A stretch of DNA of 64,000 nt from Octopus vulgaris (lineage: Eukaryota), in assembly GCA_951406725.2 (NCBI GenBank), contig OX597819.1, positions 107,818,001-107,882,000 of the forward strand. Reading direction: 5' to 3'. Shown here piece by piece: positions 1,905 to 62,149 of this stretch. Made by a program: the position numbers and the translations under genes. Each line of letters starts with the position of its first letter. The first letter of the stretch is position 1. Under the pieces are notes generated by a model. That model was not told the origin of the DNA. It was given only the letters and a program-made list of their open reading frames with translations, and made no database searches.

Positions 1905-2109
1905 TTCGACATTTTTAACTTCTGGGGTCTTGCATGCGTAGCGGGCTTGATACTTGCAGTCTATGGTACCATGCTATGTGTTCTTTTCAACTATTTAATA
2001 CCATCCTGGTCATTCTAGCCGTATCAAGAATGTGAATATCTTGTAACAGCTTTACTGAGTATTCTATTCCGATTCCCTTTATATTCCTTCTGATACTGTC
2101 CCCAAGGAC
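1905..2109 (-). mobile_element. 3' end of an R4/Dong-like RLE non-LTR retrotransposon abutting a (TAA)n/(TGA)n array
   Basis: Minus-strand translation LGTVS...IKGIGIEYSVKLLQDIHILDTARMTRMVLNS* resembles the R4/Dong C-terminus (GALGTV...LLQK...LGTARI.R.VL); microsatellite at 2110-2211. Confidence 0.6.
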
Positions 2110-11887: not shown

Positions 11888-14964
<3,077 letters not shown>

Positions 14965-16417: not shown

Positions 16418-16829
<412 letters not shown>

Positions 16830-24129: not shown

Positions 24130-25535
<1,406 letters not shown>

Positions 25536-37992: not shown

Positions 37993-38486
37993 TAAGGAAT
38001 TTTAAAAGCTATAATTAAGCACAACGCATTCAACACTCTTTTGGAGGGCTTTTGTTTGTTTTACTTATGGTGATGTGCTTACAAATAATCCTGCACGCAC
38101 ATACACACACACACACACACACTTGTATACACCCCAAATTTACGATCACCCCAATATATAAACATGTATATAGAAGCACTCCCAAACATATACACGAACA
38201 CACACGTCATTCGTCAGTCAAGTGTGAAAAATGAATCGGATAGGTTTTAAATGACTGGTTAAACGTATTACTTAGACTCGGGACAAGAATGTCCTTAGTC
38301 ACACTTTAAATCTTCCCACTTTAAAGTGTGAAGGTTTCCGTGTTGGTTGTTGAGTGATAAATGTGAAATTGTATGTCCGTGTCCGTGTGTGACTCTGTGT
38401 AGGTGCGATTTTTTAATACATACATACATACATACATACATACATACATACATACATACATACATACATACATACATACATACATA

Positions 38487-39650
38487 GAGGAAATGTCTAC
38501 ACGGACGTTAAAACTCGTAACATCATGACATCAATTGGAAACATCCACAGATACAGTGACATTGACAGGTTCTATCTAAGAAGGGCGTAGAGGTTTGAGC
38601 TTATTGCGGGAAGTCTCTCTCAGGCAGCACTTGCTAATCAACAGTCGAAAAAATAAGTACATATACTTAGTGCTGAAAGGCGAAAAGAACAACATTCTAT
38701 GTGTCGGAAGTGAGCTCTTTAGAAAGCACTCTCTTCCTTATGACTTCCCATCCAACCCCAAAACACCAGGAACAACGTACTTAGAAAAAAACTGGATCCG
38801 AAACGCACAGCATATCATAAGAAGACTCTGCGTAGGTATGTTTCCTGGAGGCTTGAACACAGTAATATCGACATGAAGCATAGCCTCTCTCTTGGACTCG
38901 CGACCGCTGCACCACATCGCATTTCGAAGGCTATACATTTGCAATCCAAAAACAGAAGGTTGCAACGAGATAGCTATTGAACAAAAGAGACAGAGAAACC
39001 CTTGGAGCTCCAAGATGCAAGCGAAAATGTAGATTTTGTCATATTTCTGTAGAAGATATAACACATGTGATTAGCAGTACTATGTGACACGACGTTGTTG
39101 CAAAAACAATATACAATGTCATTCGGAAAAAAAAACTGTCCTGGAATAAAAATAGTGAATCCCTTTGTTATTGAATACATACACTAACATCAACACAAGG
39201 AATACTGGTGGAATATTCACATCAAAAGATTTGTCGAGTGGTAAACAAGCCGGATATTGTTGTTTGAGACAGGTAAGAAAAAGTATGCACCGTCATAGAG
39301 ATTAGCTGTTCTGCAGATATGAATATTTCTTTCAAAATCAAAGAGAAAGCCGAAGATAACTATGGGCAACTGCTTCGAAACCTCCAGCTTCTATATCCAG
39401 ATTATAAATACGCATTTATACCAATAACAATTGGTACACTTGGTTTTATTTAGTAACAATCAGAAAAATATATCAGTCAACTAACTCGCACATTACAAAT
39501 ACAATCTGTAAGTGAAACAGAAAAAAATATGCTAGACTCTTCTCACGTTTAAAATGTGACTGTTTTTGTTATCTACACTCCAATGACGAACGCTTGTATC
39601 TTTGTTAGAAACCAGCCTCTTCCTCGAGAGAAGAATTCAAATAATTGAAA
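38487..39650 (+). mobile_element. Decayed R4/Dong-like RLE non-LTR retrotransposon, 5'-truncated, starting at a (CATA)n array
   Basis: Remnants SDIDRFYL, EGYTFAIQ, CRFC..EDITHVIS zinc knuckle, YWWN, NKPDIVV, VIEISC, FIPITIGTLG. Confidence 0.85.
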
Positions 39651-40208
39651 ACATATATGTATTAGCTTAACAGTAATACCATAGACAGGGTAGTTAGATA
39701 CAGCGTGTAGATATTGGTCTGATACATTTACATATTAATGATAGAGTACTATGTACTTCTACCACGGAAGATAAATTATATTAATGATTATGCCTTTGTG
39801 ACTTCAGAATTCCCTGGCTAGGTTATAGTGAAGATTAGCGTGATTTGGTAACGTTATTAATATGGGGCTGTTGGAGTGGTATTAGCAGAAAAATCGATGA
39901 GTTGATCTGCTAGAAACATTACTACAGGTTATCATAGAGTCCTTTAGTGGTTATTCAGGTGATGAAGAAGCTGGTGATGCCGCCCAGTTGGTAACATTGT
40001 CATAATTAGTAGATGTCCTTCGGGAGGAAAATTTACGAGTTATTTATTCACTTGATGTTAACTGAGATTTTTCATATTCTGATATAATTAAGGCTGTGTT
40101 TCTGCCAACATATAACAGATAACATATATCTTTAAGGAAATTGCATTATGTTAGTCTTATAATGAGCCATTTCCCTAAGGGTTTACTGCTATTCTTGTCT
40201 GTGTGTGG

Positions 40209-40244
<36 letters not shown>

Positions 40245-40257
<13 letters not shown>

Positions 40258-40395
40258 ACATTATATATATATACATACACATTTATACATTATATATATT
40301 TCTATTCATTATCTCTCTCTCTCTCAATATATATATATATTGAGAGAGAGAGAGAGAGAGATAATGAATAGAAATATATATAATGTATAAATGTG

Positions 40396-40420
<25 letters not shown>
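40245..40420. repeat. Near-perfect palindrome (foldback duplication) centred on (TA)n at about 40333
   Basis: CATACACATTTATACATTATATATATTTCTATTCATTATCTCTC is mirrored by GAGAGATAATGAATAGAAATATATATAATGTATAAATGTGTATG. Confidence 0.85.
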
Positions 40421-40445
<25 letters not shown>

Positions 40446-40533
40446 GTATATATGTGTATATATATATATAATGTATATATGTGTATATACGTTATATATG
40501 AGTGTGTGCGCGCGTGTTCGTGCGTGTGTGTGT

Positions 40534-40578
<45 letters not shown>

Positions 40579-41088
40579 TGTCTGTGTCTGTCAGTCTGTC
40601 TGTCTGTGTTGCACAAGAAGCTATCAATAATATATCTGGTAAAATACTCCAGTGATAGAACATATTAAATATAATCACCAACCTCTGCCGTATGCCAGAC
40701 TAGTGCGATTTCTACACCGAGGAAATCTGACGATTTTTTCGCAAAAATTTTAATAAGAAGCCTTATCTATACGAGCGAGAAAGTGGTTGAAATTTGTTTC
40801 AATTGGTTTTAGTTTGTTTAATAAACAGCTGACACGAAGTTCGATTCGAATAAAGGTATGTTTCCCCTTTTTCCATCCAAGTTGCATTTTACCTTATATA
40901 TTTCATTCGCAATTAAACAGCTACTTAAATTTTTAAAAAAACTTATTTTTCAAATTTCTGAATGCTCTTATCAAATCGAAGTAAAATTTATTAACCTTCT
41001 AACTTTTAAAGATAATATTCCATGATTGTATTCACTTTTCCCCGTCAATAAGGGATTTTTCGCTGTTATTTATAAATTCGTTTGCATA

Positions 41089-42361
41089 CGAGGGGCGTTC
41101 AATAAGTAATGCCCCTGACCCACTTCCCATAGCAGTAGAGCAACGACACTTGGCACAGTTATTCCTACATAGGAACTACCCAGAGTTATGCATTTCTCCC
41201 ATCGTTTGATACAGCTCTGGAGACCGTTTTTGTAGAAGACCCCAGCTTGGTCCTCCAACCACGACGTGACTTCAGAAATCAAGGCTGCATCATCTGGGAA
41301 ACGCTTTCCTTTCAAAATCAACTTCATGGCTGGAAAGAGGTGAAAATCAGAGGAGGAGTTCATAGCTGCACACCTGTGCTTCTGATCTGGCGACACGCGA
41401 GTTGTGGACCGGAGCGTTGTCCTGCAGGAGGAGGGTGCCTTTGCTGATCTTGCCCCGCCTCTTGATTTTGATAACTTCTCTTAATTTCCTCAAAAGTGAA
41501 GCATAATAGGCTCCTGTAATTGTGGTACCCTTTGCCAGGAAATCTGTCATCACTACTCCGTCCTGGTCCCAGAAGACTGTGAACATAACCTTGTCAGCGG
41601 AGGGCTGCACCCTTGCCTTCTTTGGAGGAGGTGAGTCACGGGGCTTTCACTGCATTGACTGGGATTTGGTCTATGGATCATAGTGATGGACCCAGGTTTT
41701 ATCCTGTGTGATCAGTCTTTTGAAAAATTTTGACTCATCTTGGCACATCTCCAAATTCATCCCCGAGCACTCAACGCGTTCTTGCTTCTGGAAAGGTGTG
41801 AGCAACCTGGAAATCCATCTGGCAGACACCTTTTGCATATGCAAATGGTCATGAATGATAGTTTCCACAGACCCGGTACTAATCTTGACCTTATGGGCTA
41901 TTTGGCGAATAGTTATGCGTTGACCTTCCAAAATGGCAGCCTCAACTTGACGGACAGACGTCTCATCAACGGCAGAAGGGGGCGACCAGATCTGGGAGCT
42001 GTTTCCACAGAGTTCCGACTATGTTTGAATTCACAATGCCAGGTCATATGATGGGGCATCATCACCATAATGCCAAGGTCATATGATGGGGCATCATCAC
42101 CATAAGTTACTTTCATTTCATCAAAAGTCTCCCGTGGTGTGCGTCCTTTCAAATACAAAAACCAGATCACTGCTCGACACTCAACAGGCTCCATTTCACA
42201 CTTGACTCAGTTCAAACACCTGTAAATCAGAAACCACAATTAGTTCAGAGCTGTAATTCGCCACTTAATCTATAGAGGTATAAATAAGTGCACATGCAAA
42301 CTTTCAGCTAGATCAAACAACTGCAAGTGGGTCAGAAGCATTACTTATTGAACGCCCCTCG
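41089..42361 (-). mobile_element. Full-length defective mariner, copy 1
   Basis: TIR CGAGGGGCGTTCAATAAGTAATGC with TA at both ends; ITQDKTWVHHYDP, LLLQDNAPVH; frameshifts and stops. Confidence 0.95.
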
Positions 42362-42410
42362 TAAAAGCAGCTTTTTTTTTTATTGCATTCATGCATATAC
42401 ATACATATAT

Positions 42411-42990
42411 TCACACCTTTAAAAACAAGGAATACTAGTGGAACACCCCAATAAAAACATCAATTTGATGCCAACATAACAGACCTGATATTGTTCTATG
42501 GGGCAGAAATCAAAATTCATGCGCTGTTGTAGAGGCCAGCTGCCCTGCAGATGTGAATGTACAATCAAAATTCCAGGAAACAGAGAACATTTATGGCGAT
42601 TTAATGTGAAACTTACAGCTACTGTACTCTGACGATATATTCTGATTTGTACCTATCATCATAAGGGCATTAGGTTATGTACGAAAAGAATTTGCACAAA
42701 GCCTAGAAACACTTGGTTTTCACGGAAAAAGTGCAAAAGAAACTGGCGCGGAATCTCCAAATTTAATCTATTATTGGCACAGTTGTAAGACATTTCAGAA
42801 ATTCTCCATGTGAGATTCTTAGATGAATAGATGCACACACCTGAGTGTATGCATCGACAGTTCAAGCAACACACCAACTCAACCACGCATTTACAAACAC
42901 CGGGAACTCTCTTAACTCAAAAGGTCTCGTTGCTTTGTCAGCAACCGGTTTGAAGTCTCTCAAGAAGTTAAATCAAACTCAAAGAAAAAT
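42411..42990 (+). mobile_element. Decayed R4/Dong-like RLE fragment, copy 2
   Basis: HNRPDIVLW, AVVEASCPADVN, FVPIIIRALGY; flanked by decayed CATA/CA repeats. Confidence 0.75.
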
Positions 42991-43168
42991 CATACACACA
43001 CACATACATATTGTGTATAAAAGGTTAAGTGAAATCAATGGACATATCGCTGCAGACATGATGGCGTAGGGAGGAATATACTCGCTGACTGTCACTCAAA
43101 TCATGTAATCCTTATTATATATGCATATATATACATACATCTATAAATATATATGTGTATATATGTGT

Positions 43169-43340
43169 GTCAGATAGTGACCATTGGTTTCGCACTTATA
43201 AAGTGTTTAGCCGTATTAGCGACTCGTCAGATTCAAATGGCTAGAGACACGTCCTTCGTAGAAGTATGCCTTATACGCCTTATGAGGTCGATAATCTTTT
43301 TGAGCGGCATCCTCGTGTAGAACACGTTTGATGATATGGG

Positions 43341-43376
<36 letters not shown>

Positions 43377-43670
43377 TCTGTAGAGTAACCAAGATCGAAT
43401 AACTCCATAGTATCATAGAGAAAGCAGCTTTCGTGATTATGTATACGAGCACAGCCAGTGGTACTGCTATAGCCCACAAACCACGTGATGGCCCTTTGCA
43501 ATACACTCTGCGACTGGAATGAGTCGAATTTCCTACACAGCTAAGTGCGTTATAGGTGCGAAACCAATAGTCACTCTCTGACCGGCCATAACAAACAACC
43601 TTCCAAATATATTATTGTTCTAATGTTTTAGAGTGTGCTTCTTTTTCAGATATATGAACTGCTGACGATA
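43169..43670. mobile_element. Non-coding element with inverted hammerhead-like termini
   Basis: IR 43169-43201 versus 43550-43582; minus CTGACGAG...GCGAAACCAATGGTC; plus decayed ..ATGAGTCG...GCGAAACCAATAGTC; same family as 26516. Confidence 0.6.
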
Positions 43671-43677
43671 TATATGT

Positions 43678-43825
43678 ATCTGTTCTAAGTTCAAATTTCG
43701 CCGAGGTCGACTTGCCTTTCATCCTTTCAGGATCGATAAATTAAGTACCAATCAAATACTGAGATCGATGTGATCGACCATCCCCCTTCTCTCAAATTCT
43801 GAGCCTTGTGTCTATACCGGAAAGG
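43678..43825 (+). mobile_element. SINE family A, 5'-truncated
   Basis: GCCTTTCATCCTTTCAGGATCGATAAATTAAGTACC core. Confidence 0.75.
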
Positions 43826-43891
43826 ATACATATGTGTCTATGTGCGTGTGTGTGTGTATGTGTGTGTGTATGTGTTTGTGTGTGTGTGTGT

Positions 43892-44058
43892 GAAGGCGCA
43901 TGGCTCACTGGCTAGAGCATCGAGTTCACAATCATGAGGTAGTGAGCTCGATTTCTGAACCACGTTGTGTGTTGTGTTCTTGAGCAAGATACTTTATTTC
44001 GCGTTACTCCAGTTCATTCAGCTGTAAGAGTGAGTTGTGATGTCACTGGTGCCAAGCT
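43892..44058 (+). mobile_element. SINE family C
   Basis: Homologous to 57087-57417. Confidence 0.75.
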
Positions 44059-44067
44059 ATATATATA

Positions 44068-44900
44068 TGCTGATCCGTTAATCGTTAATTAACTAAGTTA
44101 ACATTTTCGTTAACGATTTGATTTTTAAGTTAACTTTGAAAATCATTATCGGACTAATTATTTTCCGTTACATTTAGCTTCCGTTAACTCAAAACTCGTC
44201 TTCTGCAGCCCCTTGGTCGGCGAAGTTTTGGCAGACGTCGACGAAAGATTTGCGACCCTCCTGAACGATGAGGAATGCCTACTGGCTGCTACATTCCTCC
44301 TCAAGTTTCGCCTCATCTGATTGGATAGGTATGATAGCAGCAAGTTCACCAAGGTGAGGAAAAGCATGGGGGATAAGGCCGAGGAGGCCATAAGGCAGCA
44401 GTCTGAGGAAGTGAGCTGCAACAGTAAAGGCAGCAAAAACGAAGAGGTGGAGGATGGCTGCTTCAGTGGTGTCACCCAAAAAAAGGGGAGCGGAAGTCAC
44501 AGTTCACTGAAGGACAAGGCCCAGAATTTAGAAAAGACCTGGTTGGAGACCAACTTCAAAGATCTGCTAATAGATGCTGCCTTCTTGAGTGAGCAAGTTT
44601 TGGTGGACTTGTTCATCAAGTTCAACACAGCTATCCCTTCCAGTGCTGCAACTGAACGTTTATTTTCCATGGGCAAGGACATCTTAAGTGCCAAAAGATC
44701 GTCCTTGTCTGGTGAAAATTTTAGTAAGTTAATTTTCATGAAGGGCAACATGAACCTCATCAACAACATGAAAAAGAAGAGGAAAAATGAAATTATGTAT
44801 ATATCGTGTTTTTCATTTTTTATTTTTACTTTTTACGGGCATTTTATCAATAATTTTTTTTAGCTTAATACTAATATTGTGTCTCAACTGAGTTTTTTTT
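44068..44900 (+). mobile_element. hAT transposon deletion derivative
   Basis: ORF 44321..44863 contains the hAT C-terminal dimerisation motif LFIKFNTAIPSSAATERLFS..DILSAKRSSLS.ENF..LIFMKGN; left end has GTTAAC subterminal repeats. Confidence 0.75.
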
Positions 44901-46599
44901 ATGAAATCAGCCTTTTTAGGTCCTTTGAAATTTAAAACTATAAAATTAATATTTTTTAACTCTAAGCAAAAAAACTATTGTTTTGGAGTTCTAAAGCCCG
45001 CAAAAAGACCCAAAAAGCTGATTTTATAGTTTTGGCACTTTTTAACCCTTTATTGTTTAAATCGGCCAATTAGCTGTATCTAATTCTTTTACGAAATCTT
45101 TTTAAAAACTAAACAAATTACGAAAGAATAAAATTCTCGTAGCTTTGAGATAATGTGAGGGGTTTTCTTCCAGAAAACACAGAACTGAGAAAAAAGCAAA
45201 ATTAACTGAGATGGATGTCAACAGAGAAAATATTGATTTCCATAAAGTGGGAAAAATGAATGGAAGGAAAAAAGTTGGTAAATATTTCAGTGTGAATTGT
45301 TGTAACGTGGTATCAGGGCATGCTAGAAATAGCAGTCAAGTCTTTCCTTTTCTGGAAAAAAGGAGCCGTTTCCGCGTGATTTCGATGTCACGTTCGTTGA
45401 AAACATGCAAAATAACCTAGAAAAGAAAGAACCCCGCAAAACAAAACACTCTTGGTGAGAAACTTCGAGGTCCCCACTACCCCTCCCATCTTTCTTTCTG
45501 GAAAAAAGTGGCTTGCGGCGGATTTGGAGGTCAGATACTTTGAATGCACCCGAAAAAAATTGTGGGAAAAATTATTCCACAAAGAATAAAATCTTGTACC
45601 GATTATACCTGTATATTAATTAATTCAAATTAATGTACCTCATCTTGAAAAGTGGCAAAATTTTTGTCAGTTGCCATCTGGGATAATTTTAGTAACAAAT
45701 CAAACAAGTGAGATACATTAAGAATTTCAGTTTTAGTGTTTATCCATAATGTTATCGCTTTTACACCCGTTAATTAAATTTGCCTGCCCATAAAAGTCAA
45801 ATTTATTCAGCAAGATCAGGCAAAATTACATAACAATAAACCAGTGATGTATAAAGCACCCACTGACAAAATTTAAATTCTGTATGTAAAAAATTTACAA
45901 AGTTACAAGCAAATATTGTGGACACCCCTCTTGAACCTGAATAATTCAAAATAACGTGAACATGCATTCTACTTAATATGAATACTAAAGATGTTTTGAA
46001 TCTTTTTTTTTCTTACACACACACATAACACGACCTCGCTTGGTTGGGTCTACGTGAGTGTTACTTTGACATCATCATTCCATAAAATTTCTTTATGAAA
46101 AGAAAAATATTGAAAAATATCAATAGATGTGTGAGTGAAAAAGAAACGGGGAGGAAGGTTTGGGGATACGCTAGAAACAACAGCCAGATCTTCCTTATGT
46201 GGGACATGATCCGAAACTCCGTTTTGCAGAGCCCCCCCCCTCCCCCGCTTCCTTCCCAAAAATTTTGCCTACAAATTTCTTTGTAATCGTAATCTACACC
46301 GTTTGAAAGGTATTTGTATAAACTTTCATTAAAAAATATCTATTTTCCAGAAAGTAATGAGAGGAAAATTTTGGGTCTCTTTGAATTTTCCGAAACCCCT
46401 CTCCCCAGCCCCTCGGAAATTTTTTTCCAATAAATCTTTACGTACACTCAATCTACAGGATATAAGCAATTATTTGATAAAAGTTTCGTTAAAAAGTATC
46501 CATTTTTCTGGAAGTTATATATATGTGTGTGTGTGTATGTATGTATATATGTATGTATCTATGTATCTATGTATCTGTGCGTGTGTGTGTGCGTGTGCA

Positions 46600-46630
<31 letters not shown>

Positions 46631-47099
46631 GTGTGTGTGTGTACGTGTGCGTGTGCGTGTGTGTGCGTGTGCGTGTGTGTGTGTGTATGTGTGTGTAAGT
46701 GTGTATAAATAATAACTGATATATGTTGGTAGCAAACACCCTTTACCATTTTCTTATTAAATGCCGAGGCTTGTATCCGTTAAGATGGAAATGTATAATT
46801 CCACGTTCAGCCTTGCTAATCTTCATGCTTATATATAGTGTTTTAAAGTCTTACAGATTTGTAATTTCTAAAATTTATAAATCTTCATGGTATTAATTTT
46901 TCAGCTAATGCGTTGGGATTTTCTTTTTTTTCTTCAGAACATAAATTGAATTATCCTTTGTGCATTCTACGTGATGTCCCAACTTCTATAATTGAATGCT
47001 GTATCACCTTGAAATTTTACCCTACCATCATAAAAATACTATAGTATATTGATATAGGAAGTAAAAGCTATAGACGTCACTCTCAAGCTAGTATGTATG

Positions 47100-47295
47100 T
47101 CTATGTTTGTACCCCCACCTTCACTTGACTACCGATGTTGCTGGGTTTACGTCCTCATAACTTAGTCGTTTGCAAAACACACCGGTAGAATAAGTACTAT
47201 GCTTACAAAGAATAAATCATGTTGTCAATTTCTGTGACTAAAGGTGGTGCTCCGGCATGGCTGCAATCACATGACCGAAGCAAGTAAAACAATAA
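47100..47295 (+). mobile_element. SINE family B tail, diverged
   Basis: AGAATAAGTACT..GCTTACAAAGAATAA...GGTGGTGCTCCGGCATGGC. Confidence 0.65.
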
Positions 47296-47351
47296 AAAGC
47301 TATTCCATTTTAATGCCGAGCGACGCCGTGCATCTCTTTCTCTCTCTCTCC

Positions 47352-47409
<58 letters not shown>

Positions 47410-47453
47410 GTGTGTATATGTGCGCGCTTGTGTGCGTGTATATATATATGTGT

Positions 47454-47505
<52 letters not shown>

Positions 47506-48539
47506 ATGTATGTATGTATATATATATATATAGTGGGTGTAATTTTATGTTTAATCTGTAAGCAGAAGGAAGATGGTAGCATTAACTCACATAAATTAAA
47601 CTTGACGGAAAATGACGTTTAATAATATCCTGGATTGGCGTTGGTGTTTGTCGCTTTGGAGTTTTGTAAAGAACTCGTTAATTAGTTGGTTAGCAACAAG
47701 CTCCCGTGGAAAAAATAATCATTCAAGAAAGATGTGCACCATATTTTCTACCGCTGATAACAAAATGTTGCTCAACGTTGTATACTACTAGACTTTGCAG
47801 AGGGTCAAAGTTGGTAACAAAAACAGGACAGTGTAAACAAACAGGAAGGGCTGTGAAGCTAGAACGATGTGAGTTGGTGAACGGGGAAGAAACAAGCTCT
47901 GGCAGGAGACAGACAAGAATGCAACTTATCTCTGCAGCTGATCAGAAAGAAAGAAAGAAATTCAAGTGAGGAAAAGAAATATGGCCGATGGTCACGTGCG
48001 AGCAATGAGAGAGTAAAGGCAGAAGAGTGAGGGAGAGAGAGGGACAGACAGAGAATGAGAAAGGAAGAGAGAGGAAAAGAAAGGGGAGAGGGAAAGATAA
48101 ACAGAAAGTGATAGAATAAGTGTCGCATTGAAATTACTAAGATAAAACGTTTTTGGAGATGGATGCGTAGCATTCAACCATATAATAGTATAAATGATAT
48201 ATAAATATAATGTATTTTGAAATAATAGCATGAAATTTAATATCAAAAAAATTCCTCACAAAGGTATGTGTCTAAAATAGTATTGTATTAAAAATATATG
48301 TAAATATATGAAATATGACAGTTTAAAATTTTAGTAATTAATGTATCTTACGATTGTTTCACGAAAGTTTTGTCATTATAATGGAATCCATTGATAAACA
48401 ATACTTCCGCTCGTCAGAGATGGAGAAAGTAAAGTTTGTATAATATATCAAATGTTATTTTAAAAATCAGAAAAATATATGAAGAAGTATTTTTGAAAAA
48501 TAAAATTTACTGGTTTTGATTTAACTAGGTAGACTTTGG

Positions 48540-49228
48540 TATGAAAATGCCATTTTTAAATTGAAGAGACTGAACGATATAGGGATCCAGTGCTTCTGTC
48601 TTACCTTGCAATTGCTTTGCTATTTTTATAAGGTTGACAGACGTTCAATTGTCAGGCCCAACTCCTCCTTCTCTTCTTCTGGATCTGGTGCTTCCTCCAC
48701 CTCTTCGCTGACAGACTTAGTTAACTCCAACAAATCTTCGCCTGTTAGGGTTTCAGATTAGGCATCAATGAGGTAGTTGATCTCATCTTGTGTGATGTCA
48801 TCAAGACCTTCGCCACCAAGTACCTTTGTCAGTTTTACTTCATTGTTGACAGCCTTATGCTGAATGTCTTCAGGTGAGAAGCCCTCATAGTCCTGGACAC
48901 ACTCTGGCCACATCTTCTTCCAGCATGCGATGAGGGTTTCTTTTTTAATGTCTTTAAGAGCAGCGTGGATGACTGACAAGTACATTGCAATCGTGAATTT
49001 ATGCCAGTACTCCTTTAACTTGAAATTCTTGTCTGAATCTATTGCATCCACAAGGTTTTGGAGAGAGTTCCACATGTAAAGTGCCTAGAAGGCAAGGATC
49101 ATGTCTTAATTCATAGGCTGAATGGGATGGTGTTAGCAGGAAGGAACTCGACTTGGACTCCCTTGTGATTCAAATCCAAAGAGTGACCACAAGCATTATC
49201 TATAACAAGCAAGACCTTGAATTCCATG
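48540..49228 (-). mobile_element. Decayed pogo/Tigger transposase fragment
   Basis: KVLLVIDNACGH, VEFLPANT, IQPM, then LKEYWHKFTI...LIACWKKMWP in ORF 48758..49075. Confidence 0.8.
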
Positions 49229-49319
49229 AGACGAAGAGGCCTTTCTTTTTTCCGCCGAAACTACACCTGATTATATATACACTTTAGATAAGTTGTAGTG
49301 CACCTGAGCACTGTACACA

Positions 49320-49384
<65 letters not shown>

Positions 49385-49450
49385 TTAAAAACTTCGCAGT
49401 TCACCGCTTTTTTTCTTCGGACTGATTCATTCTCACACACACATACACGC

Positions 49451-49501
<51 letters not shown>

Positions 49502-49729
49502 CCTTAAATAATAAAGCAGCAAGGTCGAGTCAATGAAATCGCTACCGTGTACAACGCAAAATGAGAGGAGGGTATACGTATGTACCGAGGTAAAGACGGA
49601 TTTATATTCCAGATGCATGTACGATCACAAGTGTTTTTCTTTTTTTTTTTCGCATGGGCTAATAACTCTATTCATCAATAAAAAGCGCGTCTGAAACAGG
49701 TGTGGTGAGTGAACGACTATCCATCTATT

Positions 49730-49793
<64 letters not shown>

Positions 49794-49794
<1 letters not shown>

Positions 49795-50350: not shown

Positions 50351-51080
50351 TATATGTATGCATGTGAGGTGTTACTTATAGTAATAACCCTTGCTGTAAT
50401 AATGTATTTTATATTTGAGGAAAAAAATTATATACTTGTATTAATTTTTTCCTCAATCGGTTTTCCACGCTGGCTTCTTGATAAATCTTATATAGATTTT
50501 ATCCTTATACTTTATATATATCAGAAGCGTGCGGTCCATCGAAGCAAGGGAAGCAACGTTTCCCTTTAAAATTATAGAAACAAAATCGAAACTACATTTC
50601 TTATTTTTCATAAGATCGTTCTTTTAATGTTCTGTATAATTACTATAAACTACATGACATCATAGGCTTCAGACTTTTATTGTCGGAATTAGCATGAGAC
50701 GACACGCAGTGGCAGACGACACGCAGTGACAGACGCCACAAAAAAAATCTGTGCAAGAGAACCAACACGAGCTGTTGCATCCTCTCCGCTGTAATATTTT
50801 AACATTTTTTCCGATAAAAATGCCACCAAGACAATTTTTTTCTAGTAAGAGCTGATAACGAATAGTCTTAGATGCTAATAAATACTTATACGCTTAGATT
50901 AAGTTTCTATCAATTCGTAATACCTATAATATATATAATCTTACGTTGTTATGTAGCACTTACATTGGAAATGGAAGCAAGTTGACATTCTACTTCCATC
51001 AGGAAAACAGTGTAAAGATAACGCGCGTGGTTTTCTTGGTTTATTCAACTATTTCATACTTTTTCAGAACACCCTTAATA

Positions 51081-52323
51081 TTTGGTTGTCCGGAAAGTTT
51101 GTGATCTTTTATAGTAGCTTACCTTTTGACTTATTTTAGAAAATAGATGGGTTCATAAAATAGGATTTTACTACACATCCATTTAGAGCACAGTTTAAGC
51201 TATCTTTTCGTTGAAGAAGGTTTATGTTCCTATAACCTGTGTTAATTCTGTAACCCTTTAAAATGGAAGATAAGAAAGTTCATTTTCGGCACTTGATGCT
51301 TTTCTTTTCCTGTAAAGGGAAAAATGCCTCACAAGCAACCAAAGAAATATGCGCAGTTTACGGTGATGTTTCTTTATCCGAAAGAACTGTACGGAAGGTT
51401 CCGAGCTGGAGATTGTAGCCTTATTGATAAAGAGCGATCAGGCAGACCATCCACTACAGATGATGACCAAATCAGGTCATTAACTCAGAATAGCCCACAT
51501 TGCACAACCCGGGAATTGTCAGAGCCTCAACCTATCAAAATCCGTCGTTCATGAGTACCTGGTAAAGCTTGGGTACGCAAATCGCTACGATGTTTGGGTG
51601 CCACATGAGTTGAGTGAGAAAAACCTTTTGGGTCGCATCTGTGATTCGCTTTATAAACGGAATGAAAACGCCCCTTTTTTAAAGCAAATTGTGACAGGTG
51701 ATGAGAAATGGATTATCTACCGAAATGTTCAGAGAAAGCGATCCTGGAATAAGCGATATGGGCCACCCTTAGCCATCCCAAAAGCGGGTCTTCAACCTAA
51801 AAATGTCTTGCTCTGTGCCTGGTGGGATTGGAAAGGAATTCTGTACTATGAGCTTCTCCCAAGTAACCAGACAATTAACTCTGAGAAATACTGCACACAA
51901 TTGGACGAGTTAAAAGCAGCAATTCGATAGAAACGTCCAGAATTGGCCAACATGAAGGGTGTTGTTTTCCAACATGATAATGCAAGACCGCATGTTTCTT
52001 CGGGAACCAGACAAAAATTGCCGCAGCTCGGTTGGGATATGTTACCTCACCCTCCATATTCACCAGATATTGCTCCTTCGGATTTCCACTTATTCAGGTC
52101 TCTGCAGAATAGTCTTAATGGTAAAAATTTCAATTCCTTGGATGAATTCTTTGCCCTGAAACCACCTCAATTCTGGGAAGAGAGTATTTTCAAGTTAAAG
52201 GAAAGATGGAGACGCTTTGTGCAACAAGAAGATTCATATTTGGTTGATTAAAAATGTAATGGCAAGTATTTATTGACCTTTTTCTTTCCTATAAAATCAG
52301 CACGAACTTTCCGGACAACCCAA
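51081..52323 (+). mobile_element. Full-length defective mariner (second family)
   Basis: TIR TTGGTTGTCCGGAAAGT versus ACTTTCCGGACAACCCAA; WVPHEL, IVTGDEKW, HDNARPH, YSPDIAPSDFHLF; frameshifts and a stop. Confidence 0.95.
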
Positions 52324-52419
52324 CATAAAATGCGATTTTTTTTATTTCAAAAATAGCTGTATAATACGAACATGTCACTTTGATTCAAATATCTACGTGA
52401 CAGAAGATTTTGGCCATGG

Positions 52420-52938
52420 GTGCGTGCTGAGAAGTTGGCTTTCCAGCCACATAGTTCAGGGTTCAGCCCCACTACGTGGCGCTCTTGGGCAAGTGTCTTC
52501 TACTATAGCCCCGGAAGCGGATTTAGTGAACGGAAACTGAAAGGAGACCGCGGTACGTATACAACTTTTATTTGTTTATTTGTTTCAGACATTTGATTGC
52601 GGCCATGCTGAAACACCACCTTTAGTCGAAGAAATTGACCCACGACTTATTCTTTGTAAGCCTAGGACTTATTTTATCGGTCTGTTTTACCGAACCGCTA
52701 AGTTACGGGGACATAAACGCACCAACATCAGTTGTCAAACGATGGTGGGGGATAAACACACACATACACACATATATACAGGAGTGGCTGTGTGGTAAGA
52801 AGCTTGCTTACCAACCACATGGTTCCGGGTTCAGTCCCACTGCGTGGCACCTTGGGCAATTGTCTTCTACTCTAGCCTCGGGCCGACCAAAGCCTTGTGA
52901 GTGGATTTGGTAGACGAAACTGAAAGAAGCCCGTCGTA

Positions 52939-52972
<34 letters not shown>

Positions 52973-53365
52973 CGTATATATGTGTGTGTGTTTATGTGTT
53001 TGTGTTTGTCCCCCCAACATCGCTTGACAACCGATGCTGGTATGTTTACGTTCCCGTAACTTAGCGGTTCGATAAAAAAGACCGATAAAAAATACTACAC
53101 TTACAAAGAATAAGTCCTGGAGTCGATTTGTTCGACTAAAGGCGGTGCTCCAGCATGGCCGCAGTCAAATGACTGAAACAAATAAAAGAATAAAAGAATA
53201 AGAGAATATATATATGACGGGCTTCTTGCAGTTTCCGTCAACCAAGTCCACTCACAAGGCTTTGGTTGGCTCGAAGCTATAGTATGACACTTGCCCAAGG
53301 TGCCACGGAATGGGACTGAACCCGGAACCATGTGGTTGGGACGCAAGCTACTTACCACACAGCCA
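52420..53365. mobile_element. Cluster of family B SINEs: a + copy (52778-53205) nested inside a - copy (tail 52570-52775, head 53212-53365)
   Basis: Each segment matches the head or tail of 37285-37698. Confidence 0.8.
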
Positions 53366-53701
53366 ATGTATATATCTCTACTGTTTGCGTTTGTCCCCTA
53401 CCACAGCCTAACAACCGGTGTTGGTTTGTCTTTGGTTTCTAACTGTTTAAGAAAATGGACTATCACTACATATATTCATATGTATATCTACTCAGAGTAG
53501 ATAAAACAGGGGGCAACAGATGAAAGGAATGTTGTTTATGTTGCCTGTCTCGTATCTCTATTTCTTCCATTCGTTGTTCAAAAAAAGTTCGTTTTCCATG
53601 TTTTTGTTTTTTGTGTTCTCGTTTCTCATTTTGTTCACGTTTTTTTTACGTCCTGTACCCATATATGCATGTATATATACATATATATGTAGGAATGTAC
53701 A

Positions 53702-53752
<51 letters not shown>

Positions 53753-53786
53753 TATACATATATATATACATATATATACATACATA

Positions 53787-55044
53787 CGAGGGGCGTTCAA
53801 TAAGTAATGCCCCTGACCCACTTCCCATAGCAGTAGAGCAACGAAACTTGGCACAGTTATTAGTCTTTTCCTACATAGGAACTACCCAGAGTTATGCATT
53901 TCTCCCATCGTTTGATACAGCTCTGGAGACCGTTTTTGTAGAAGACCCCAGCTTGGTCTTCCAACCACGACGTGACTTCAGAAATCAAGGCTGCATCATC
54001 TGGGAAACGCTTTCCTTTCAAAATCAACTTCATGGCTGGGAAGAGGTGAAAATCAGAGGGTGCAAGGGGAGGAGTTCATAGCTGCACGCCTGTGCTTCTG
54101 ATTTGGCGACAAGCGAGTTGTGGACCGGAGCGTTGTCCTGCAGGAGGAGGATGCCTTTGCTGATCTTGCCCCGCCTCTTGATTTTGATAGCTTCTCTTAA
54201 TTTCCTCAAAAGTGAAGCATAATAGGCTCCTGTAATTGTGGTACCCTTTGCCAGGAAATCTGTCATCACTACTCCGTCCTGGTCCCAGAAGACTGTGAGC
54301 ATAACCTTGTCAGCGGAGGGCTGCACCCTTGCCTTCTTTGGAGGAGGTGAGTCACGGGGCTTTCACTGCATTGACTGGGCTTTGGTCTGTGGATCATAGT
54401 GATGGACCCAGGTTTTATCCTGTGTGGTCAGTCTTTTGAAAAATTTTGACTCATCTTCTTGGCACATCTCCAAATTCATCCTCGAGCACTCAACGCGTTC
54501 TTGCTTCTGGAAAGGTGTGAGCAACCTGAAAATCCATCTGGCAGACACCTTTTTCATATGCAAATAGTCATGAATGATAGTTTCCACAGACCCGGTACTA
54601 ATCTTGACCTTATGGGCTATTTGGCGAATAGTTATGCGTTGACCTTCCAAAATGGCAGCCTCAACTTGACGGACAGACGTCTCATCAACGGCAGAAGGGG
54701 GCGACCAGATCTGGGAGCTGTTTCCACAGAGTTCCGACTATGTTGGAATTCACAATGCCAGCGTTTTACAAGGTCATATGATTGGGCATCATCACCATAA
54801 GTTACTTTCATTTCATCAAAAGTCTCCCGTGTGTGCGTCCTTTCAAATACAAAAACCAGATCACTGCTCGACACTCAACAGGCTCCATTTCACACTTGAC
54901 TCAGTTCAAACACCTGTAAATCAGAAACCACAATTAGTTCAGAGCTGTAATTCGACACTTAATCTATAGAGGTATAAATAAGTGCACATGCTAGATCAAA
55001 CAACTGCAAGTGGGTCAGGGGCATTACTTATTGAACGCCCCTCG
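53787..55044 (-). mobile_element. Full-length defective mariner, copy 2 (near identical to 41089-42361)
   Basis: Same TIRs, TA flanks and shared lesions. Confidence 0.95.
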
Positions 55045-55047
55045 TAT

Positions 55048-55120
<73 letters not shown>

Positions 55121-55239
55121 TATATACACACATATATACACACACACACATACATATGTATATTTATATATACATACACACATGCATATGTATATGTATA
55201 TATACACATACATCTGTATGTATATGTACAATAATATAT

Positions 55240-55448
55240 ATACTCTTTTACTTGTTTCAGTCATTTGACTGCAGCCATGCTGGAACACGGTCTTTAGTCG
55301 AACAAATCGACCACGGGACTTATTCTTTCTAAGCATGGTACTTACTCTATAGGTCTGTTTTGCTGAACTGCTAAGTTACGGGGACACAAACACACCAGCA
55401 TCGGTTTCAAGCCTGGTGCGGGAACAAGCACAGACACACAAACACATC

Positions 55449-55493
<45 letters not shown>

Positions 55494-55616
55494 ATAATTA
55501 TTGTTACAATCATATATAAAACTTCTTGTTTTACCGAATATGGTTCCTTTTCATACCGAAACTACTTGGTGAAATTTATTAATTATAAATTAATAATTTT
55601 TTACCCTATATCTATA

Positions 55617-55691
<75 letters not shown>

Positions 55692-55835
55692 ACGGGCTTC
55701 TTCCAATTTCCGTCTACCAACTCCACTCACAATGCTTTGGTCGACCCGATGCTGTAGTGGAAGGTAGCACACAGTGAAAGTTAACCCGGAGCCATGTAGT
55801 TGAGAAGCAAGCTTCTTACCACACAGCCACTCCCT
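55240..55835 (-). mobile_element. SINE family B with an expanded internal microsatellite and insert
   Basis: Tail at 55240-55445, head at 55690-55835. Confidence 0.75.
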
Positions 55836-56319
55836 TTGTGGTGGGGGTTACTAGGAAAGGGTTGACAGTCACTTCGAAGTTTCGGCGGCGTAATCTTCAT
55901 CGATAAAGGCTATATAGCCGAAACTTCCAAGTGGTAGTCAAACTTCTTCTCGTAAAAAATATAAATGCGTTACTGTGCTGAAAACTATCGAGTTATGCTT
56001 CAATTTAATGTTTGGCTGTTTTATATACGATTATATTTTAATTCATTTGTTTATAAACATACATACATACATACATACATACATACATACATACATACAT
56101 ACATACATACATACATACGTACGTACGTACGTACGTACATACATACATACATACATAAGAGGGAGAAAGGGAGAAATGTGAAGAGGTAAGAGAAGAGAGA
56201 GTGTGATAGGCGGAGAGATAGAAGAGAGAGAGTGATGTGTGCGTATGTGCGTGTGTGTGTGTGTCTCTCTCTCTCTCTCTCTCTCTGTCTGTGTGTGTGT
56301 CTGTGTATGTGTGTGTGTG

Positions 56320-56376
<57 letters not shown>

Positions 56377-56904
56377 TTGCGCATAAAACACACACGTCAC
56401 TATCCATATAGTCGTCTGTTTATTAGAAGCAAAATCATCCTACGGTAATTTTTGTGTGTGGACAATATATTTTAAAGGCTTCTCAAATTTTTATTTACCT
56501 TCTGCTATAAATTGTGTTATTTTGTTTCTTTTTCCTCTTTGTTATTCATCAAAGTTTACTTTGAACGCAAATTTGTTCTGTTTTCCCCCCTTTTGCAAAA
56601 TTTTCAGAAAATTCATGTAAAATAAATATTTATGGATGAATTAACTGCCAAGATTTTCCTACGTAAAGTGACACTAAGCACCAGTTTGTGAAAGAAATAA
56701 TAAAGGCCAATTGTGTCATTTTTGTGTATGTGTCCCAAATTAATGTTTGAAATGTTTAAAATAGATATGTTTACACAAAACATTCAATATAAATTTGAAA
56801 TTGTTATGGGTTTTTATCTGATCAACTTAAGCCATTTTCAACGAGGTAAATTTTATTGTTCAAACTTTACTTTATGTAGATAGATAAATAGATAGATAGG
56901 TGGC

Positions 56905-56993
<89 letters not shown>

Positions 56994-57000
56994 GTATAAG

Positions 57001-57036
<36 letters not shown>

Positions 57037-57086
57037 AATGTATGCATATATGTATGAATATATATTTTATATACACACACATATAT

Positions 57087-57417
57087 AGGGTAAAGACCCC
57101 CTTCGGTCATGAATGACCATGGGATTGCACCTAGAAAGCTACCTTCCTAGATACAAGTCCGGGCAAGGTTGTTTATGGAAGGCCAGCAGTCGCCCATGCA
57201 TACCAGCCTCCCCTCTCCACGCCACCAGTGTTATCCAAGGGAAAGACAAAGGTCGATACAGCTTGGCACCAGTGACGTCGCAACTCATTTCTACAGCTGA
57301 GTGAACTGGAGCAACGTGAAATAAAGTGCCTTGCTCGAGAACACAACACGCAGCCCGGTCCGGGATTCGAGCTCACAACCTCACGATCGTAAGCTCGACG
57401 CTCTAACCACTGAGTCA
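57087..57417 (-). mobile_element. SINE family C, long copy
   Basis: Minus GACTCAGTGGTTAGAGCG...GAGCTCGAATCCCGG tRNA-like head with A and B boxes. Confidence 0.85.
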
Positions 57418-57441
57418 TATAGACATACATATATACATATA

Positions 57442-57531
<90 letters not shown>

Positions 57532-57539
57532 GTAACAGA

Positions 57540-59450
57540 AAGGGAAGAATTTCGATTGTCTCCGCGTGGTGAGTTGTAATATATATAAGAAAGTAAAGAA
57601 GGAAAATGCACACACTTTACATAGTTTTAATATACTTTTTAATATATCTTGCATTGTGTTTGTCGACCGGTTTCACTTTCGCTATTCATGACATTAAAAT
57701 TTACTTAAACACGTATTTTCTTAAGAAATTTTTTGGTCCATGTTGAGAGTGAAATTTATGAATAAATCATTCAACAAGTAGAAAAATCTAAGGGGAAGTA
57801 ATTGGTTATCGTTATTATTGTGGGCATGGGAGATAACTGTTTAGCTTTCGGTAGGGTATGGGGAATATATTTGTATACACAAAAATTCGAAAACTAGATT
57901 AGTGGGGAGAAACATATACAGTGAAGGGTATTTAATCGTGAATTAAAATATGTAAAGAGATCAAAGTTGGTTATGCGTGCATATTTAGACGTGTTCTGTA
58001 TTCTTCTATGAAAAAATTTTCTGTATTTAAACGTTCTTGTAAAGAAATTGTATCTTTGCACTAGTAGAAGGGGAAAACTGTAAAATTTGGTTTGACGTTA
58101 CCTGCACATTTCTCTATGTGTTCGCTTAAAGGAATTTGTCTGTATTGCAAAAACCGGATCTGCTCTTTATGTAGAGTGGTTCTCCGTCTCAATGTCATAC
58201 TCGTTAGTCATATATAGTGATGTCCACATCCCCAGCAGGTTATTACATAAGTTAGGTTCTCAGAGGCACAAGTGAAGTTGGTTTTAATTGTGAACCTCTT
58301 TCCTTGTTTGAAAAGGAAATCCGAGCCTTCAAGTAGGTTGGGGCATGTTCCACATGGTTTCGTAGTTGTGTAAAGCTTCGCATTTGATAGAAGTCTCTTC
58401 AGCGATTTGTGGTGCTTTTTTGCATTTGATGAGTTTATGCGCTTTCAACATGTTTTTCATTTTTGGATCTCTAGTTAGTAAAGGGAGATTTTGCACAATA
58501 GTGTTGCATGCCTCTTTGTTTCTAGGGTTGTGGGTTAATATATACAGTAGTGTTTTGAGATGATGTATTGTGTTATGCTTTGTTGTCCTTAGTGTTTTTA
58601 TGTCTAATTTCTTGGCACGCTTAATTTCATCGTCTATAAGTGAGGATGGATATTATCTTTCAGTTAGTGTTGTTTTGAGGTCTTGAAGACGAAGATCCCG
58701 AGTAGTTCTATCAGACACTATTGTGCAAACCCTTTTTGCCAAATTAAAGGGGATATTAAATTCGATGTGTTTCGGGTGGCATGAGCTAAAGAGGAGATAT
58801 TGTTTCAAATCCGTTGGTTTATGATAGATGTCAGTTATAATTTGGTTGTTGACTTTTTTTATCATGATATCCAAAAATGGATATATTCCATTGTTATTTG
58901 AACGTTACTATTTATATCATTTAGTGTTAATTTGAAGTTCAAAAGTTTGTCAATAGTCTCCTTCCAAATGATAAAACAGTCATCCAGGTATCTTTTCCAG
59001 CTTTCTCTTATGTAATGGTGAAATGGATAACCATATTTTTGAACTGACACTTCATATATGGTGAATTCAAAATAACCCATTATCAGGTTCGCAAGAACAG
59101 GAGCTGCTTTCGTTCCCATCGCAATTCCGCATTTTTAGGATAGTATGTGTTATCAGATATGAAATAATTGTTCTGAAGTATTAATTTTAAAGATTCAATA
59201 ATAAAGATCTGACTTATGCGTTCCCGGAGTACTTTTCCAACCAGAATTTGATTGCTTTTATTCCATAGTCATGTGGAATAAAGATTGGTGTAAAGATTGA
59301 TAACATCGAGGGTAACCAATATTGCCTCTTCATTAATTGTTTTTTGTAGGTGCTCTAGCGTCTAAATCGTCTCTAATGAAACTTTCGATGTATCTCAGCA
59401 AGGGTTTCAGTAGAATGTCAAGAAAATTGCTTAGGCGGTGGATTTCAGTT
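57540..59450 (-). mobile_element. Decayed Penelope-like element (Neptune-like): RT, GIY-YIG and 3'UTR
   Basis: LDVINLYTN, GIAMGTKAAP, WKRYLDDCF, YHKPTD..QYL.FSSCHP, FTCASENLTYVITCWGC..YI; ORF ends near 57971; decayed hammerhead at 57661-57694. Confidence 0.9.
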
Positions 59451-60569
59451 ACAGTCAACCAACAAACCTATAAACAGGATGCTACAGTGAAGTACAGTGA
59501 GCCTAATTCGAAATGAGTACCCCAGCAAGGTAGAGGCCATTAAGTTGTAACAAGGTACTGCAGTAGTGTACAATAAACTTTAAATGTTAGTAATTACTAC
59601 AGTGAAGTGCAAGCCATCTAGATATATGTAGGTACTAGAATAAATACCATAATGATGTACATTCCAGGTAGCCATAATTAAATGATTTCATAAAAGTAGG
59701 TACAGAAATGAGGCATAGTCCAACACTTCATTCATAGGTTAGCGACCGAGTTCCAGATATGTCCCAAATTCAGGTAAAGTCAAGTTAACAATAAGTATCA
59801 CAGCGATTTACAGTCAATCAATCTATAAGCAAGAACTACAGTGAGATACAATAAGCGTAGCTATACGTAGTTACAACAGTCCAATTAGATGTAAGTAGGT
59901 TCCAAAGTGAGATATGTCGCAACTAGCTGCTAGTAGTTATTTCAGTGTAGGATTTTCAGTTATGTACTCTCCAACTAGCTTCAAGTAAAATTCACAGTGT
60001 CATACAGTGTACCAAGTTATAAGCATCTCAGTAAAATCATTCCAACTAGCAGAAACTAAGTACCAAACTGAGGTGCGGTCTCCAGCGGTAGGTATGTTAC
60101 ATTCAGAGAGACACTGCACCAAGATGTAAATAAATCTCATTGTGAGTTTCATAACATGTACATTTTAAGTGGGTACTAAATTAGGTACAGTCAAGCTAGA
60201 TATAATTAGGTATAATTGTATAATTATACAATCTTCTCTTCCACAGTATTTTCCACGTTGAAATGGAATCCTCTGAGTTATACGAAATTAGAACAGTGGG
60301 GTATAGTCGATTTAATTGAGATGTGTTACAACCTTTATGTTAACTTCACCTAAAAAGGACTAAGTACCAGAGTGAGGCACAGTCAAGCGAAAGGGGTGCA
60401 ACCAAACAAGTCACAGTCCACTTAGATTTAAATAGATTTTGTAATAAAAGGTAGAATCTGCCTAAACTAAGTTAAAGATTATGCGCCCAGAATCAACAAG
60501 TACGTGGTTCAGAATCGTACTTCATATCCACACGGTCGTGGATTCACCCATCGTATGGATTCATCCTTT

Positions 60570-61218
60570 CGTATTTCTTTACTGCCCACAAGGGGCTAAA
60601 CACAGAGGGGACAAACAAGGACAGACAAACAGATCAAGTCGATTATATCGACCCCAGTGTGTAACTGGTACTTATTTAATCGACCCCGAAAGGATGAAAG
60701 GCAAAGTCGACCTCGGCGGAATTTGAACTCAGAACGTAGCGGCAGACGAAATACCTATTTCTTTACTGCCCACAAGGGGCTACACACAGAGAGGACAAAC
60801 AAGGACAGACAAACGGATTAAGTCGATTATATCGACCCCCATGCGTTATTGGTACTTATTTAATCGACCCCGAAAGGATGAAGGCAAAGTCGACCTCGGT
60901 GGAATTTGAACTCAGAACGTAGCGGCAGACGAAATACAGCTAAGCATTTCGTCCGGCGTGCTAACGTTTCTGCCAGCTCGTCGCCCTATATAACCCATCA
61001 TAATCCTTTCCGCTACAGGCACAAGGCCTGGAACTTCTAGGGAGAGGCTAGTCGATTACATCGACCCCAGTGCTCAATTGGCACTTATTTGATCTACCCC
61101 GAAAGGGATGTAAAGCAAAGTCGACCTCAGCGGAATTTGAATTCAGAACGTTCAAATTCAGGAGAAATGCTGCTAAGCATCTAGTCCGGCGTGCAAACAA
61201 TTATGCTAGCACGCCTAC
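60570..61218 (-). mobile_element. Tandem SINE family A copies (60570-60755, 60757-60985) and a diverged copy (61003-61218)
   Basis: Repeated CGACCCCGAAAGGATGAAAGGCAAAGTCGACCTCGG. Confidence 0.85.
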
Positions 61219-61563
61219 TTATTCGCCCGTTATAATATATAAAGAAATATATTTGTATTCAAGCAACCGTGTGTGTGTATGTTTATAAATGAAACACGAA
61301 AGTTTGAACAATGAAACTTACCTTGTTGAAAACAACTTCAGTGGATCAGACGAAAACTTATAACAATCTCAAATTTATATTGAATATTTTGTGTAAACAT
61401 TCAGTGTACGTACGTATGTATGTATGTATGTATGTATGTATGTATGTATGTATGTATGTATGTATGTATGTATGTATGTATGTATGTATGTATGTATGTA
61501 TGTATGTATGCATGCATGTATGTATGTATGTATGTATGTATGTATGCATGCATGCATGCATAC

Positions 61564-61594
<31 letters not shown>

Positions 61595-61625
61595 TGTATG
61601 TATGTATGTATGGATGTATGTATGT

Positions 61626-61853
61626 CTCTTCTATTTTTTAAATTATTATAATCTTCCAGTGAGGAGGGAGCCGGTTTCCAACAAAGATACAAGGCTCCAT
61701 CTTTGGGATGTAGTTAACACAGACAAATTCACATTCGGAACTTGAGAAAAGTCTTGCATATTTTTACTATTCCTCTCACAGATTGGACTTGTAATGTAAG
61801 AATCAGCCGGTCAACTTCTCTCTCTGAAAATCCCAGTTTATCTAGATTCTCCT
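61626..61853 (-). mobile_element. 3' end of R4/Dong-like element, copy 3, flanked by (CATA)n on both sides
   Basis: ENLDKLGFSEREVDRLILTLQVQSVRGIVKICKTFLKFRM* matches the C-terminus at about 39460-39560; 3'UTR TTGTTGGAAACCGGCTC matches 39602. Confidence 0.85.
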
Positions 61854-62149
61854 TGTATGTATGTATGTATGTATGTATGTATGTATGTATGTATGTATGT
61901 GTGTATGTATGTATGTATGTATGCATGCATGCATGCATGCATGTATGTATGTATGTATGTATGTATGTATGTATGTACGTACATACGTTCGTAAGTACGA
62001 AAGGGTGGATCGATCGATCGATCGATCGACCGAAATTACCCTTAGATATATTTAGATGTCGCAGTGGAATACGGCTTATCATCCATCTAACAACAAACAG
62101 CCTCCCCTGTGAGGTACAGCGCACCTTTTTGTAAGTTGATGCCACAGTA

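Follow-up and report, generated by a model that had tools for sequence, protein, structure and literature searches.

Why do three retrotransposon fragments in one stretch of octopus DNA all begin at the same kind of simple repeat? The question is posed by a window of 64,000 nucleotides from Octopus vulgaris (contig OX597819.1, positions 107,818,001 to 107,882,000, numbered here from 1), in which six-frame translation and self-comparison revealed three decayed fragments of restriction-like endonuclease (RLE) retrotransposons, each representing the C-terminal part of a protein that combines reverse transcriptase (RT), a CCHC zinc knuckle and RLE. Most probably, the fragments are the dead 3' ends of elements that carry one open reading frame (ORF), belonging to an R4/Dong-like lineage that targets (CATA)n and inserts there in a fixed orientation. 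Direct support comes from the surviving domain pieces, from 5' truncation at varying points and from CATA repeats on the element sense strand, which are found at the window junctions, at the 3' ends of the element copies in sequencing contigs and at either end of intact relatives.

Truncated copies and their CATA junctions

All three fragments had been marked in an earlier sequence-only reading of the window, and each was found at the same coordinates and on the same strand (Table 1). Queried with the intact relative P0162, tblastn detected copy 1 at E 1.6e-33, copy 2 at 1.2e-25 and copy 3 at 1.4e-7, with 5' starts near residues 748, 999 and 1098 of that protein, i.e., at three different truncation points. 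Copy 1 is damaged by stops, frameshifts and internal deletions. Pfam returned nothing significant for the decayed fragments, and a word-based protein search with the copy 1 frame (X at stops) retained 0 of 151 candidates; phmmer with the same frame matched 316 proteins at E ≤ 0.001, the long matches carrying RVT_1 and a zf-RVT-like knuckle. In keeping with an octopus host, the protein hits obtained for the family include predicted proteins of O. bimaculoides and of O. vulgaris, the O. vulgaris one being 69% identical to copy 1 over 58 columns. The earlier reading had regarded the copies as one family. It was right in recognizing an RLE element of R4/Dong-like type that is associated with (CATA)n on the sense strand, but DNA identity (75.6% over 168 nt between copies 1 and 3, about 66% over 137-158 nt between copies 1 and 2) and 3' untranslated regions (UTRs) unlike one another divide the copies into at least two subfamilies.

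Junctions were scored by matching the 16 adjoining bases to (CATA)n on the element sense strand. Copies 1, 2 and 3 score 16, 14 and 16 on the 5' side and 9, 14 and 15 on the 3' side, five of the six junctions thus being CATA-like, and the antisense-strand scores lie between 6 and 10. Across both strands of the window, 0.4% of 16-mers reach 16 and 0.85% reach 14, while among the ends of 23 other window repeats a score of 14 on either strand is reached by 3 of 46. The proposal that a CATA-type repeat stands at every 5' junction on the sense strand is borne out by these values, with a reservation for copy 2, whose 5' flank is CATA-like but merely a short degenerate run. As three distinct truncation points all carry CATA on the 5' side, a 3' tail alone is insufficient as an explanation. 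A target-site duplication within the repeat cannot be fixed from the junction phases.

A short 3' UTR motif of the CTTG..RCCGG type, located about 35-45 nt from the element end, is common to the window copies and to the CATA- and CTTA-flanked relatives described below. It was considered as a CATA-specific feature and rejected, being present also in the CTTA-flanked loci L003, L005 and L009.

Table 1. Coordinates of the retrotransposon copies, their domain remnants and their flanks within the window
Feature	Position	Strand	Remark
(CATA)17 array, 5' junction of copy 1	38419..38486	+	
Copy 1	38487..39650	+	5'-truncated, decayed; holds the RT region's end, the zinc knuckle, the RLE and a ~100-nt 3' UTR
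CCHC zinc knuckle remnant, copy 1	39028..39078	+	final Cys gone
RLE catalytic core remnant, copy 1	39247..39306	+	KPD...E
3' UTR motif, copy 1	39592..39617	+	one mismatch
3' flank of copy 1	39651..39666	+	decayed; CATA match 9/16
Degenerate CATA run, 5' junction of copy 2	42390..42410	+	14/16
Copy 2	42411..42990	+	5'-truncated RLE remnant, different subfamily, ~180-nt 3' UTR
3' flank of copy 2	42991..43010	+	CATA/CACA mixture, 14/16
Interrupted (CATA)n array, 3' junction of copy 3	61415..61625	-	
Copy 3	61626..61853	-	last 40 codons of the ORF, without stop, and 3' UTR; subfamily of thousands of copies
3' UTR motif, copy 3	61669..61694	-	
Interrupted (CATA)n array, 5' junction of copy 3	61854..61980	-	one base common to element and array

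The family in sequencing contigs

Contigs of three sequencing runs with three organism labels (X3, X4 and X9; of eleven runs with small word shares, X7-X17, X9 alone served as evidence) were aligned to copy 3 together with 16-18 flank bases. The aligned contigs number 5799, 4916 and 3769, and the ratio of peak summed depth to typical single-contig depth is 16,000-25,000, an order of magnitude rather than a copy number. In all three runs, thousands of relatives have a 3' end running into ACATAC. The first bin of the CATA flank retains 93%, 94% and 97% of the depth of the last element bin (X3, X4 and X9), ratios that are biased upwards because flank-matching contigs align more readily. Less biased are the loose ends of contigs clipped at position 61650, 24 bases inside the element (157, 164 and 106 contigs), whose consensus in each of the runs has GTATGT where element and flank meet, although their median length is 17-21 letters, their agreement 0.72-0.76 and the junction is reached by the longer ends only. 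Further loose ends match the 3' UTR of the copy 1 type and confirm a second abundant subfamily.

At the 5' break of copy 3, where one base is shared with the array, element sequence goes on in 28-38 contigs. In X4, one paralogue enters a CATA flank on its 5' side; a contig of X9 carries copy, CATA and copy head to tail. The family in the host genome would comprise roughly ten thousand copies or more.

Intact relatives and their flanks

A profile scan of metagenome contigs yielded 20 loci, while an exact 25-nt pattern gave 0 matches in such contigs. A tetranucleotide array lies at an element end at 13 of the 20, which are not fully independent, as they include the pairs L005/L006, L012/L013 and L014/L016 and a CTTA set that may represent one host. 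Two of them, L001 (1133 aa) and L002 (1161 aa), are full-length single ORFs flanked at either end by (CATA)n in sense orientation; such an array also terminates L011. (CTTA)n was found at ten loci (L003-L007, L009, L012, L014, L016 and L017), several with intact ORFs: it lies on both sides of L003 and at the 5' junction of the 5'-truncated L017, and it separates L004 from the 3' end of an L016-type element behind which L004 sits.

RVT_1 is present in 14 of 16 aligned rows, the remaining two being N-terminal pieces, and CCHC, RHD and PD..E in 10 of 11 proteins, the exception being a truncated one. The apurinic/apyrimidinic endonuclease (APE) family is not among the Pfam matches, nor does a C2H2-like pattern occur in the first 350 residues of any of the 11 relatives, a region missing from the window copies. 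A search of 8 loci with Rfam at E ≤ 1 for ribozymes of the hepatitis delta virus (HDV) type gave 7 matches, all below the gathering score and none a ribozyme, although Rfam may not model those of these elements. The 5' UTRs of L001 (115-230) and L002 (100-235) share two blocks with a possible pseudoknot, part of which recurs in L004; Rfam has no match to them.

Argonauta hians carries intact or near-intact members of the lineage (P0187 and P0395-P0397), at least 90% alike and with GAB1597890.1 and its cluster as intact copies, which suggests from their sequences that the lineage was recently active in an octopod. As a direct source of the window copies this family was rejected, since its C-terminal identity to them (39-48%) is the same as that of other members.

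Phylogenetic placement

An RT search with L001 recovered 59 close relatives at 45-66% identity (the query's own cluster aside), including an Argonauta hians protein, followed by a gap, the rest being at or below 42%. A FastTree phylogeny with 89 rows places copies 1 and 2, together with L001, L002 and the majority of the CTTA loci, in a clade of 38 rows (support 100), nested in a 66-row clade (support 100) that leaves out the insect/shrimp group around the Pediculus RT P0227. Copy 3 is too short and stands outside this tree, as well as outside an IQ-TREE phylogeny of 243 C-terminal columns and 35 rows; the latter also leaves out another three rows, which have no C-terminal columns. Copies 1, 2 and 3 score 140, 107 and 23 bits with the C-terminal profile of their own lineage, as against 71, 61 and no match with that of the insect/shrimp group. 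These sequence comparisons give good support to a lineage that unites CATA- and CTTA-flanked elements and lies apart from the Dong-like group proper. Deeper branches are formed by L012 and L014, both CTTA-flanked, and CTTA may accordingly be the older target.

The tree rows exclude named R4, Dong, Rex6, NeSL, HERO and CRE sequences, and the likely membership in the R4 clade is drawn from architecture and the nearest outside group rather than from comparison with a named R4, Dong or Rex6 sequence. The nearest outside group contains an RT of Pediculus humanus, a species that a figure legend of PMC7998251 lists with the R4/Dong-like elements.

A putative Myb-like domain at the N-terminus

Residues 10-88 of L001 are modelled as three helices with a predicted local distance difference test (pLDDT) score of 78.5. 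The VIA structural neighbours of this model are mostly Myb/SANT domains (best Z 6.2, root-mean-square deviation 2.4, 64 aligned; TRF1 at Z 5.8), values below firm thresholds, and they include telomere-repeat binders; an Atlas lead points to the Myb of Rap1 at 0.86. For the same domain, Foldseek returned nothing at E 0.001 and Pfam no match; when the entire N-terminus of 368 residues was searched by fold, all rows were coiled-coil or non-significant. In the third helix, L001, L002 and the Argonauta protein have L-N-E-x-A-K-R, where the four aligned CTTA loci have L/Q-R-D-x-A. Descent alone could explain this difference, as the comparison includes only two elements known to be CATA-flanked, both of one subclade. 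A divergent Myb/SANT-like domain at the N-terminus of R4/Dong elements has been reported and argued to set the target (PMC7998251).

It is intriguing, if rather doubtful, to hypothesize that an undescribed and widespread R4-like lineage living on tetranucleotide microsatellites was retargeted from (CTTA)n to (CATA)n by two or three changes in a Myb-like recognition helix.

Proposed mechanism

The elements would insert into a pre-existing (CATA)n microsatellite in a fixed orientation. By analogy with R2, which contributes all the relatives of solved structure (5 R2 chains, E 3.5e-27 to 1.8e-20) and is the source of the target-primed reverse transcription (TPRT) model (PMC4838377), the protein may bind the conserved 3' UTR motif of its own RNA, the RLE would nick the (TATG)n strand, and reverse transcription would be primed at the nick, often ending early. 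A target-site duplication, if any, would be masked by the repeat. The N-terminal Myb-like domain might read the repeat unit, changes in its third helix accompanying the CTTA/CATA difference, a step less secure than those borrowed from R2.

Weighing the explanations

Several observations weigh against this reading. The 3' flank of copy 1 matches CATA at background level only, among the loose-end rows listed, 5' junctions are known only for single contigs besides the three window copies, and no empty site was seen. To these should be added the bias of the depth ratios and the shortness of the loose ends noted above. Among the relatives, L009 has a TAA run on the 5' side and CTTA on the other, and 7 of the 20 loci have neither a CATA nor a CTTA array, although most of these end inside the element and one (L020) looks unrelated. 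The IQ-TREE phylogeny does join copies 1 and 2 to the CATA group as sisters (81/91), yet unstarred, and a constraint that puts them with the CTTA rows survives the approximately unbiased (AU) test (p 0.23). The Myb match is modest, and the domain itself is missing from the window copies.

The same repeats might also be read the other way round, the CATA run being a tail on the element RNA, so that the arrays are mostly element-made and new copies enter old tails by RNA-DNA pairing. The strongest genome-wide data do concern the 3' end only, head-to-tail stacks exist (the X9 joint and L004), and the tails of long interspersed elements (LINEs) are a known source of microsatellites (PMC3812793). 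However, no upstream element end is detectable beside the arrays 5' of copies 1 and 3, arrays flank the full-length L001 and L002 at either end, and most of the 16 CATA-class arrays of the window are distant from the three elements, which makes this explanation unlikely, if the strongest of the rivals. RNA pairing could aid priming under insertion into pre-existing (CATA)n as well.

Less probable still is a loose preference for any TA/CA-rich microsatellite, with CATA merely the commonest or best-surviving outcome. It would accommodate the mixed CATA/TATA/CACA flanks of copy 2, the decayed 3' flank of copy 1 and the two different arrays of L009, yet AT (47) and AC (31) arrays outnumber the CATA class (16) in the window while the junction consensus in three runs is ACATAC, and the 13 array-bearing loci keep to one unit per family, except L009. 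As for random insertion into a microsatellite-rich genome, simple repeats are indeed abundant, with 251 tandem-repeat rows in the window, but the observed match is reached by less than 1% of 16-mers and few control ends, and the 3' junction is common genome-wide and in relatives from other organisms. Chance, largely refuted by the contig junctions and the relatives' flanks, is thus extremely improbable, and targeted insertion into (CATA)n by an R4/Dong-like lineage remains the preferred explanation.

Other repeats of the window

A 5'-truncated LINE with a 690-codon RT frame (12188-14878, minus strand) has sense-strand (TATC)n on both sides; it is the case that the sequence-only reading had assigned to Tx1, and it is a single copy. 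Directly behind a TAA/TGA array, at about 1345-2108 (minus strand), approximately 40 codons resemble a Dong-like C-terminus, also in one copy, with a non-significant profile score of 0.2 bits. From these two cases, set beside the CATA copies, the earlier reading had suggested that retroelements might divide microsatellite types among themselves as safe harbours, which is speculative with one copy of each in the window. A mariner-like pair (41085-42363 and 53783-55047), 94% identical and bearing terminal inverted repeats, has its first member stopping 47 bases before copy 2. A 100-bp repeat at 61299-61400 and 56767-56868 (86% identical) adjoins a CATA array at one site and a GATA array at the other. 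Finally, a near-complete LINE with endonuclease-like and RT frames (20102-22973, minus strand) appears CR1/L2-like by eye.

Relation to known systems

Dong-R4 LINEs are already known from octopuses. In O. vulgaris, where they are abundant, they comprise 51 consensus families and 92.7 Mb, with 5 recently active families (PMC13282606), and a full-length Dong consensus is known for O. bimaculoides (PMC9115989). Such libraries may well contain the sequences of the window family, but the parts of PMC13282606, PMC9115989 and PMC8967140 covered here nowhere name a target for octopus Dong-R4. Likewise, the parts of PMC4640811, PMC7650587, PMC13580325, PMC4494074 and PMC13586686 covered here contain nothing on a (CATA)n target of an RLE element. 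The literature search as a whole found no RLE element on CATA, TACA, ACAT, ATAC or CTTA; it did not extend to Repbase, Dfam, Kojima and Fujiwara 2004 or Fell et al. 2025, which may hold the family.

With Dong, the lineage shares a single ORF, RT followed by a C-terminal RLE, the lack of N-terminal zinc fingers and insertion into microsatellites (PMC7998251, PMC3812793). The Dong-like elements proper (Bombyx Dong, DongAg, DongBg and Darwinula Dong1/2) target (TAA)n (PMC3812793), whereas the flanks here are CATA (window, L001, L002 and L011) or CTTA, and L009 alone shows a TAA run, on one side. Compared with the insect/shrimp Dong-like group of P0227, the lineage differs in RT identity (36-42%), in its separate clade (support 100) and in its C-terminus. 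Rex6 of fish targets (CTA)n. Nematode R4 targets ribosomal DNA (rDNA), according to a title cited in PMC3774820, and R4 and Dong carry HDV-like ribozymes (PMC3774820). Rex6 and R4, compared here by description only, are R4-clade RLE elements like the present lineage, but their targets are a trinucleotide repeat or rDNA. With this lineage, two tetranucleotide repeats join trinucleotide repeats and rDNA in the target range known for R4-type RLE elements. R2 carries N-terminal zinc fingers and a Myb domain and targets 28S rDNA, in contrast to the microsatellite flanks of this lineage and the lack of an N-terminal C2H2-like pattern in all 11 relatives.

In the earlier reading, no other family specific for (CATA)n was known. 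This repeat is already known as a LINE target, that of Waldo (WaldoAg1, WaldoAg2 and the earwig Waldo), which inserts into ACAY and has an APE-type endonuclease (PMC3812793); what stands is that, in the literature covered here, no RLE element has been named for it. Waldo belongs to the R1 clade, by a title cited in PMC3812793. ACAY includes ACAT, the same repeat as CATA, so the target is alike, while the enzymes are unrelated: a C-terminal PD..E RLE here and an APE-type endonuclease there. Waldo also has two ORFs. If the proposed switch from (CTTA)n to (CATA)n is true, it would amount to a natural retargeting code for RLE retrotransposons, one by which the target of Waldo was reached independently. 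Intact CATA- and CTTA-flanked elements, a few residues apart in the predicted DNA-reading helix, make the argument that Myb sets the target directly testable, with a bearing on the retargeting of R2-type proteins for gene insertion and on the evolution of octopus microsatellites and their flanks.

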